A DNA stretch of 16,302 bases, from IMG/VR virus record IMGVR_UViG_3300042517_000935. One strand, written 5' to 3'. Source of the stretch: a virus. The notes under the pieces were generated by a model. That model did no database searches. It saw only the letters and a list, made by a program, of their open reading frames with translations, and was not told the DNA's origin. Shown here piece after piece: positions 15,283 through 15,957 of this stretch (the first letter of the stretch is position 1; every line of letters begins with the position of its first letter). The position numbers and the translations under genes are program-made.

Positions 15283-15957
15283 ATGTCCAGCGTAACTGAT
15301 ATTTATTCTATCTGCCCCAAGTGTGGCAATAGTTTTGATCCCTATTCCAAATATGGTGCCAAGAAATTCTGTAGCAGAAAATGCGCCAATGCGAGAATAC
15401 ATTCACAAGAAGTAAAAGACAAAATTAAATCAAAATTGAAAGGAAGACCTAGCCACAATAAAGGATTGCCATCTCCCAACCGTGGAAAAAAATTTGGATC
15501 TAAAAAAGATATAATTAAGATTTGCCCCATTTGTTCTAAATCATTCTCGGCAGCTAGAGTTACCTGTTCGAGAATCTGTTTCAAACAAAGAGCAACAGAA
15601 AATGCACTCAAACAAGAAAAACATGGAGGAGGACACAAGGGCAAATACAAAGGATTTCATTGTGATAGTACATATGAACTAGCCTTTGTGATTTGGCATT
15701 TGGATCATAATATTGAGATTGCTAGATCAACTTCTGTGTATGATTACACCTACAAGAACAAAAAACACAAATATCGTCCTGATTTTGTAGTGGAAGGTGT
15801 GGAAATTGAAATCAAGGGATTTATGAGCAAGAGAGCTCAAGCCAAAAAGGATCAATGTCCCAATGTTATGGTAGTGGATAAGATAGACATACAAGTCTAC
15901 ATCAAGTATGTTCGCGAAACATACAAAGTAAGAGACCTGCGGAAGTTGTATGAATGA
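15283..15957 (+). CDS. Free-standing homing-endonuclease-like protein: N-terminal Zn ribbon, NUMOD3 motifs, second Cys cluster, C-terminal Vsr/DUF559-like PD-(D/E)xK nuclease domain. 224 aa.
   Basis: CPKCG...CSRKC Zn ribbon. SHNKGLPSP and NRGKKFGSKKD are NUMOD3-like. CPICS...CSRIC second Cys cluster. C-terminal YRPDFVVEGVEIEIKG matches the DUF559 yivDF...l.iEvDG core (PD...E.K). SD AAAGGAAG lies 5 nt upstream. Confidence 0.7.
   Translation: MSSVTDIYSICPKCGNSFDPYSKYGAKKFCSRKCANARIHSQEVKDKIKSKLKGRPSHNKGLPSPNRGKKFGSKKDIIKICPICSKSFSAARVTCSRICFKQRATENALKQEKHGGGHKGKYKGFHCDSTYELAFVIWHLDHNIEIARSTSVYDYTYKNKKHKYRPDFVVEGVEIEIKGFMSKRAQAKKDQCPNVMVVDKIDIQVYIKYVRETYKVRDLRKLYE

Follow-up and report, generated by a model that had tools for sequence, protein, structure and literature searches.

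Homing endonucleases with GIY-YIG or HNH catalytic domains are already known from phage transfer RNA (tRNA) clusters, and PD-(D/E)xK homing endonucleases have likewise been described (I-Ssp6803I and the Vsr-like EDxHD type). SegB lies in the tRNA cluster of phage T4, and its 27-bp site includes the T-psi-C-coding motif of tRNA genes; its own inheritance in crosses with T2L is about 100%, and it promotes passage of the tRNA region to the progeny (PMC2330249). Homologues of SegB show a statistical association with tRNA genes and are able to amplify tRNA loci to counter host defences (PMC13096335). Reviews recognize six structural homing endonuclease families plus F-CphI, an Endo VII-type enzyme encoded beside the intron-containing psbA gene of cyanophage S-PM2 (PMC6083498). 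Here, a viral DNA stretch of 16,302 nucleotides (nt), IMG/VR record IMGVR_UViG_3300042517_000935 (hereafter the window), was analyzed around an open reading frame (ORF) that lies near its end between tRNA genes. Comparative sequence evidence and the analogy with SegB indicate that this ORF is probably the gene of a free-standing homing endonuclease, whose family has no name, is mostly viral and lives in phage tRNA arrays.

Like SegB and SegB-like GIY-YIG enzymes, the gene is free-standing between phage tRNA genes, appears to specify a modular DNA-binding region with NUMOD3-like elements and is optional in related phages. It is unlike SegB in that the predicted catalytic domain is PD-(D/E)xK and not GIY-YIG, the protein carries four-cysteine (Cys4) modules, and the family is known from sequence alone. 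The tie between a PD-(D/E)xK homing endonuclease and a tRNA gene is shared with I-Ssp6803I of the cyanobacterial tRNA-fMet group I intron. As with F-CphI (PMC6083498), a free-standing phage endonuclease would stand outside the classical families, and "collaborative" targeting of an intron-less allele is possible; this parallel rests on the gene adjoining interrupted tRNA genes (see below), and the nuclease fold differs from that of F-CphI.

A predicted nuclease domain related to T7 endonuclease I

The ORF proved to be real, with an ATG start and 224 encoded amino acids (aa). Searches of Pfam, NCBIfam and PHROG with the window protein gave no match above a curated threshold, and conservation was assessed in an alignment of 38 full-length family members (A1), with 25 domain sequences compared separately. 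Positions C11, C14, G120, S129, E132, L133, Y164, P166, D167, F168, E176, K178, K188 and Y223 were invariant in A1, and C30, C34, C81, C84, C95 and C99 were conserved at 90% or more. S129, E132, P166-D167, E176 and K178 showed no variation in any of the 38 full-length or the 25 domain sequences, and the motif of the window protein is the classical E...PD...ExK. AlphaFold2 modelling with A1 gave a mean predicted local distance difference test (pLDDT) score of 87.9, reaching about 97 over residues 120-224, and the modelled domain has the alpha-beta-beta-beta-alpha-beta core of the PD-(D/E)xK superfamily. The predicted fold and the conserved catalytic motif together confirm the assignment as a PD-(D/E)xK nuclease. 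The earlier note, made from the letters of the window, had described a Vsr/DUF559-like PD-(D/E)xK domain at the C-terminus. The modelled nuclease fold of this region and the invariance of its catalytic D/E/K residues in 38 of 38 relatives uphold the PD-(D/E)xK part, whereas the Vsr/DUF559 part was not sustained, the window protein having no DUF559 or Vsr match in Pfam, no EDxHD-type motif and the classical motif in its place.

Foldseek comparison of the model with the PDB returned no significant match, and comparison with BFVD returned 52 viral matches at E<=1e-3. The BFVD labels included "Endodeoxyribonuclease I", "Endonuclease I", "TnsA endonuclease N-terminal domain-containing protein", "Nuclease associated modular domain 3", "DUF559 domain-containing protein" and "Putative homing endonuclease [Pseudomonas phage PaBG]", and some matches carried the label "Holliday junction resolvase". 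The best fold match was TnsA, and the best solved relative by sequence was T7 endonuclease I (PDB 1m0d; profile search, E=1.2e-3). In Pfam, aa 151-188 matched Phage_endo_I (PF05367) at E=0.009 and 16.1 bits against a gathering cut-off of 29.1, and the best-scoring relative on this model, P0058, reached 26.2 bits. Alignment of the nuclease-domain profile (A5) with T7 endonuclease I by hhalign gave a probability of 87.8% and E=3.3e-6 over the PD...ExK strands; of the full T7 sequence entered there, only the middle part is confirmed by the PDB profile search. The catalytic motif and its spacing resemble those of T7 endonuclease I (PF05367; PDB 1m0d), namely S-x-x-E, 35 aa, PD and ExK: E132 and D167 are 35 residues apart as in the T7 enzyme, counted by eye on that full sequence, and S129-x-x-E132 was paired with T7 E20 by eye, the tool alignments covering the PD...ExK strands and not the E20-bearing N-terminal helix. 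In the T7 enzyme, E20, P54-D55, E65 and K67 are the catalytic residues (PMC11833611).

Homology of the nuclease core to T7 endonuclease I is thus supported at the sequence level, and by the curated criterion the protein is not a member of PF05367. The domain is T7-endonuclease-I/TnsA-N-like and not of the Vsr/DUF559/EDxHD type; with its classical E/PD/ExK motif it is unlike I-Bth0305I/EDxHD and DUF559, and TnsA and T7 endonuclease I are closer. Differences from both of these are clear. T7 endonuclease I forms a domain-swapped dimer that resolves Holliday junctions and, unlike the window protein, lacks sequence-specific DNA-binding modules. Unlike TnsA of Tn7, the window gene has no TnsB/C/D partner and no transposon ends, and the window protein matched neither the Tn7_Tnp_TnsA_N nor the DUF7487 family of Pfam.

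Zinc and NUMOD3-like modules in front of the nuclease

Two Cys4 clusters had been recognized in the ORF by the earlier note, and both, C11/C14/C30/C34 and C81/C84/C95/C99, were invariant or at least 90% conserved in the 38 relatives. The first zinc (Zn) module showed weak matches to the treble-clef and Zn-ribbon proteins YacG, FCS finger and L24e. The NUMOD3 module named in the same note fared less well in the window protein, for which Pfam reported no NUMOD3 even at E<=10. Relatives gave the following matches: at the aligned helix of P0003, P0019, P0042 and P0058, NUMOD3 was the top sub-threshold Pfam match (E 0.011-0.16; 12.4-16.1 bits; PF07460 cut-off, 20.4 bits), and precomputed PF07460 assignments are on record for five more distant relatives (P0079, P0084, P0085, P0091 and P0094). 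Residues 8-126 matched PHROG 1271, "HNH endonuclease", at E=6e-9 over profile positions 177-248 of 361, which by its placement is the DNA-binding part of that family and not the HNH motif; a further weak match was to PHROG 945/15137, "endonuclease".

Most members carry a third module, CxxC...FCSxxC, after the nuclease domain, which the window protein lacks. In other relatives the nuclease is N-terminal, or it is preceded by C2H2-type fingers and NUMOD3 repeats, and the order of Zn modules and nuclease domain varies. A C-terminal nuclease, as noted before for the window protein, is therefore correct for this protein but is not a trait of the family. DNA-binding modules shuffled around a fixed catalytic domain are typical of GIY-YIG and HNH homing endonucleases, and the putative DNA-binding parts of this family appear to be modular in the same way.

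A largely viral family confined to phage tRNA arrays

A search of 5.8 billion proteins returned 62 relatives, called "hypothetical protein" where named; one relative from the Joint Genome Institute (JGI) was labelled "predicted nucleic acid-binding Zn ribbon protein". An exhaustive hidden Markov model search of 1.84 billion cluster representatives (50% identity) gave 1,323 matches at E<=1e-30, 3,191 at E<=1e-10 and 11,785 at E<=1e-3, the last set probably including zinc-ribbon-only matches. No Pfam model for the family and no informative name was found in the searched sources, and a literature search of open-access papers gave no description of this nuclease family. IMG/VR held at least 99 family loci on contigs of 4-372 kb, and 185,579 prokaryotic species genomes held 8 loci only, mostly on contigs of metagenome-assembled genomes, together with one on a 628-kb plasmid; the family is almost exclusively viral. 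Among GenBank phages, copies were present only in Lak megaphages and two other huge uncultured phages, and the window as a whole had no megablast match there.

Strict association with phage tRNA arrays, which the earlier note had overlooked, was the strongest feature of the family. The context survey covered 88 fetched loci (80 from IMG/VR and 8 from the prokaryotic genome collection), and all 88 were located in or beside a phage tRNA array. tRNA genes were found in the 4-kb flanks of 80 of 80 IMG/VR loci, with 744 tRNAs in 568 kb, and the nearest tRNA was at most 500 nt away in 73 of them; the 8 genome-collection loci and the Lak-B3 megaphage locus likewise lay among tRNA genes. The median distance from the stop codon to the next tRNA was 19 nt, and in 37 of the 80 loci it was 30 nt or less or the two overlapped. 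The tRNA neighbors in the IMG/VR loci were non-random, with a preponderance of Glu-UUC (22) and Asp-GUC (13) upstream and of Asp-GUC (15), Ser-UGA (12) and Glu-UUC (8) downstream. In most loci the gene and the tRNAs are on the same strand, a few nt apart.

One site occupied, empty or filled with a GIY-YIG gene

IMG/VR was searched with a 47-nt 5' segment of one tRNA-Glu, and the interval up to tRNA-Asp was compared. The site was empty, with a 61-nt spacer, in four contigs (L094, L095, L097 and L101) and filled by a 674-nt cassette with a family gene in five (L040, L091-L093 and L096). The flanking tRNAs of L092 (filled) and L095 (empty) were 96-99% identical, and the spacer alone was replaced. 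The family is thus an optional cassette with presence/absence polymorphism at a conserved site. The same site of L098 was occupied by a gene of 213 aa whose product matches NUMOD3 above cut-off and a GIY-YIG domain of the SegE type, so that a GIY-YIG+NUMOD3 gene replaces the family gene there, in keeping with the niche of SegB. The window's tRNA-Gln (30-mer) and leader (37-mer) had no match in IMG/VR, and a cassette-free relative of this phage was not found; the leader also had no match in the JGI metagenome collection, although JGI-derived contigs contain it, their samples evidently lying outside that collection.

Exchange of endonuclease genes was also observed in the window's own population. 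The window carries two paralogous HNH (Mob-like) endonuclease genes with NUMOD3-like repeats, at 5992-6483 (+) and 13437-14183 (+); the first likely starts at the ATG at 5992 and not at 5911 as in the ORF list. In L002 (8054-9152), L087 and L089, which are 99.9% identical to the window elsewhere, a 280-aa GIY-YIG+NUMOD3 gene and a tRNA-Arg(UCU) stand in place of the second HNH gene. The region is a hotspot of mobile endonucleases, with endonuclease genes swapped at one locus within one phage population. The neighboring tRNA-Leu(CAA) is wholly replaced, in genomes of about 99.9% identity, by a diverged allele with a 51-nt insert (L001, Table 1), a swap compatible with marker exchange or co-conversion beside a homing endonuclease, no cross being involved. 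The tRNA-Leu(CAA) of L004 (1451-1533) is chimeric, its 5' part window-like and its T-arm and 3' acceptor strand L001-like, and its acceptor stem would mispair; it is either a recombinant or an artefact of mixed-strain assembly.

Metagenome assemblies contain the exact 224-aa protein in 65 blocks. The gene has a GC content of 36.6% versus 46.0% for the window and 46-53% for neighboring genes. In L087 (GCA_043529225.1), from the same phage, a GGA-to-TGA change at the equivalent of window position 15463 gives G61* in the endonuclease gene, a pseudogenised allele or possibly a sequencing error. The low GC and the G61* allele are signs of a dispensable, foreign gene.

Front end of the cassette

The TATAAATA motif occurs three times in the window, always on the plus strand (5900-5907, 13340-13347 and the copy in Table 1); every copy precedes one of the three endonuclease-like ORFs, and the motif is found nowhere else in the window. 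The chance expectation was 0.32, and 0 of 200 shuffles reached three copies. The motif is kept as (T/C)ATAAATA at equal distance in the relatives L102, L105, L106 and L007. It is a putative promoter, judged by its match to the T4 late-promoter consensus; the late-promoter motif of the earlier note was present, at a distance of 56 nt and not 58.

A 37-nt leader follows, which was identical in the window, L102 and L105, where the proteins are 48-65% identical and the flanking tRNAs differ. In L106 and L007 the leader has diverged, with four predicted pairs altered on both sides and pairing retained, which weakly supports the predicted hairpin, since these changes come from one diverged lineage. 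The leader may serve the cassette in controlling translation or processing. The Shine-Dalgarno-like site is kept as AGGA(A/G) in relatives. In L102 and L105 the tRNA-Gln that follows the ORF is also present, lying directly against the 3' end of the orthologue or overlapping it.

Table 1. Positions of the features discussed, numbered along the window unless another contig is named.
Feature	Position	Strand	Basis or remark
ORF, 224 aa, putative free-standing homing endonuclease	15283-15957	+	order: Zn module, NUMOD3-like helix, Zn module, PD-(D/E)xK nuclease
Zn module 1, aa 8-37, C11-x2-C14...C30-x3-C34, "CPKC...FCSRKC"	15304-15393	+	pLDDT about 90
NUMOD3-like helix, aa 39-56, IHSQEVKDKIKSKLKGRP	15397-15450	+	modelled helix, residues 42-52
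Zn module 2, aa 78-103, C81-x2-C84...C95-x3-C99	15514-15591	+	pLDDT about 92
PD-(D/E)xK nuclease domain, aa 115-224	15625-15954	+	putative catalytic residues E132, D167, E176, K178
Putative catalytic codons	E132 15676-15678; D167 15781-15783; E176 15808-15810; K178 15814-15816	+
TATAAATA motif	15219-15226	+	matches T4 late-promoter consensus; 56 nt before ATG
Conserved 5' leader CGGATCACGATGCGCCAACATCCATCCGCTCTAGACA, predicted hairpin	15233-15269	+	nucleotide identity across orthologues; L102 2941-2977
Shine-Dalgarno-like AGGAAG	15274-15279	+	read from sequence; 4 nt upstream of start
tRNA-Leu, probably UAA	15031-15170	-	51-nt insert 15084-15134 in anticodon loop; 5' end 112 nt from ORF start, divergent
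tRNA-Gln(UUG)	15985-16059	-	ARAGORN and Rfam; 3' end 27 nt after ORF stop, convergent
tRNA-Leu(CAA)	16072-16154	-	ARAGORN and Rfam; 115 nt from ORF stop
Near-consensus sigma-70-type promoter, TTGACA-17-TATATT, 11/12	16206-16234	-	consensus match; upstream of tRNA-Leu(CAA)/tRNA-Gln
Interrupted tRNA-Pro(CGG)	5722-5846	-	anticodon-loop insert
Interrupted tRNA-Leu(CAA) allele	L001 10790-10927	-	51-nt anticodon-loop insert
Interrupted tRNA-His(GUG), phage with 48-50%-identical relative	L007 4672-4820; L106 3687-3835	-	anticodon-loop insert

Proposed mechanism and alternative explanations

By analogy with T4 SegB at every step, we infer that the gene would be expressed from its own cassette, consisting of the TATAAATA motif, the conserved leader and the ORF. 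The two Cys4 modules and the NUMOD3-like helix would bind an extended DNA target within or beside a conserved tRNA gene of a co-infecting related phage without the cassette. The T7-endonuclease-I-like PD-(D/E)xK domain (E132, D167, E176, K178; metal-dependent) would then cut the target DNA, and recombinational repair from the cassette-bearing genome would copy the gene into the inter-tRNA spacer, co-converting neighboring tRNA genes. The earlier proposal of an undescribed homing endonuclease family agrees with the comparative evidence, namely the invariant residues, the predicted nuclease fold, the optional cassette and the replacement by GIY-YIG; its Vsr fold does not. Several points weigh against the homing explanation. 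In the window protein NUMOD3 falls below the Pfam threshold, and T7 endonuclease I itself resolves junctions by recognizing structure, not sequence. The filled and empty sites compared belong to a subclade with about 33% identity to the window protein; an empty site was not found for the window's own orthologue group, in which all population variants carry the gene. Moreover, the gene is probably co-transcribed with the tRNAs in most loci, which would suit a tRNA-related function too.

The protein could instead be a domesticated, beneficial nuclease that cuts at tRNA genes, excluding or degrading competitor genomes or amplifying tRNA genes against tRNA-targeting host defences. The very large family, the strictly conserved catalytic residues and the fixation of the exact protein in nearly all population variants would agree with such a role, and SegB amplifies tRNA-Tyr and other anti-defence loci (PMC13096335). 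The nonsense allele of L087, the empty sites in related arrays and the low GC speak against it, and it extends the homing model without replacing it; as a separate explanation we regard it as unlikely. Co-transcription with tRNAs might also point to an RNA-directed enzyme, a nuclease for tRNA-precursor processing, repair or intron excision encoded with its tRNA substrates, which we consider very unlikely. The gene is optional between identical tRNA genes and replaceable by a GIY-YIG DNA endonuclease, the window gene is antisense to its tRNAs, and interrupted tRNAs were found in only two phage lineages among more than 80 loci. tRNA-splicing endonucleases use a Tyr-His-Lys triad; the putative active site here is a metal-dependent, DNA-type E/PD/ExK, with the triad of EndA/Sen not encountered, and the similarity to NUMOD3 and PHROG 1271 indicates DNA binding.

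The sequence-level relationship of the nuclease core, for which T7 endonuclease I is the best relative, and the "Holliday junction resolvase" labels of some BFVD matches would fit a structure-specific nuclease that, like T7 endonuclease I, resolves junctions or debranches DNA in replication and packaging and whose position at tRNA genes is incidental. Such an essential enzyme would not be optional, stop-interrupted in one allele or exchangeable with GIY-YIG, its two or three Zn modules and NUMOD3-type element would be needless, and tRNA genes accompany 88 of 88 loci, too regularly to be incidental, so that this role is improbable in the extreme. Homing endonuclease genes often degenerate, and the loss here of the third Zn module that most relatives carry, together with the stop codon in one allele, could mark the protein as a catalytically inactive DNA-binding or regulatory protein, or as a decaying pseudogene remnant. 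That reading has the lowest probability of all: the window protein retains every putative catalytic residue, none of which varies within the family, and the exact 224-aa sequence recurs in the 65 assembly blocks.

Interrupted tRNA genes beside the cassette

The position of the ORF between a tRNA-Leu and a tRNA-Gln on the opposite strand had been described before, and both genes are present, the latter as tRNA-Gln(UUG). The anticodon of the tRNA-Leu, given as UAG, is probably UAA, and its 51-nt anticodon-loop insert had been overlooked. Standard ARAGORN and Rfam missed this tRNA-Leu, which was found by the intron mode of ARAGORN. Its anticodon reads UAA or UAG depending on the choice of insert borders; the syntenic gene of L102, which carries a 65%-identical orthologue, is a tRNA-Leu(UAA) without interruption, and this synteny suggests UAA. 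When folded, the cloverleaf is kept and the insert forms a three-way junction. A 207-aa ORF at 14565-15188 (-), called in some assemblies, overlaps this interrupted tRNA-Leu; a 146-aa version starting at 15005 is more plausible. Neither version had a family match, and an exact look-up of the 146-aa ORF was empty.

Further interrupted tRNA genes are listed in Table 1. Their tRNA-like inserts of 48-75 nt differ in sequence and follow one plan, in which a stem closes the insert, the final one of its internal hairpins resembles a T-arm, and the tail is rich in A. The exons by themselves form perfect cloverleaves when folded. They occurred in two phage lineages only, among more than 80 loci. Many intron-mode calls of ARAGORN at other loci looked like merged adjacent tRNAs and were not used. 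Group I/II self-splicing introns were rejected, the inserts being too short, as was a hammerhead or other known ribozyme, with no Rfam family and junction strands that are too short. A canonical archaeal-type bulge-helix-bulge intron was also rejected, the central helix having only 2 bp. Inserts of about 50 nt in phage tRNA anticodon loops were not described in the open-access papers searched.

One scenario would join these inserts to the endonuclease. The family would target tRNA-gene DNA, and the inserts would be new small phage tRNA intervening sequences that protect the phage's own tRNA genes or are spread in trans ("collaborative homing"), being removed by a pathway undescribed in bacteria and phages, for example RNase P-/RNase Z-type cuts at the tRNA-like inserts followed by RNA ligase. 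We hold this combined scenario to be quite unlikely, and a link of the inserts to the endonuclease, be it target protection or collaborative homing, is speculative. The interrupted tRNA genes form a lead of their own, which may be the more surprising.

Other features of the window

No terminator was detected downstream of the sigma-70-type promoter (Table 1), so that transcripts started there would cross the endonuclease ORF in antisense. Two genes near tRNA genes encode a saccharopine-dehydrogenase-type protein (11172-12575, -), possibly an enzyme of polyamine metabolism, for instance homospermidine synthase or carboxynorspermidine dehydrogenase, and a PP-loop ATPase (9334-9936, -; PF01171, the TilS-type tRNA-modification family). 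An ORF at 6804-9293/9374 (-), of 829-856 aa, matched the major vault protein shoulder domain (E=3.7e-19) and a vault repeat, which is unusual in a phage. A eukaryotic giant-virus origin, prompted by the tRNA "introns", the vault-like protein and the homospermidine-synthase-like gene, was rejected because a SleB-type cell-wall hydrolase and an outer membrane protein beta-barrel are encoded nearby and the relatives are phage contigs.

Implications

What appears to be new, from sequence comparison, is a T7-endonuclease-I-like core joined to Cys4 and NUMOD3-like modules in a free-standing protein restricted to tRNA arrays. If cleavage is confirmed, a large family of free-standing homing endonucleases would be added, with at least 1,300 clusters at 50% identity and copies in megaphages such as Lak. 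The tRNA-array niche would then have been colonised independently by GIY-YIG (SegB), HNH and PD-(D/E)xK nucleases. Small monomeric zinc-finger/PD-(D/E)xK enzymes with long target sites may also be of interest for enzyme engineering. For the phages themselves, such a finding would bear on how tRNA arrays are assembled, exchanged and amplified, including against tRNA-targeting host defences.

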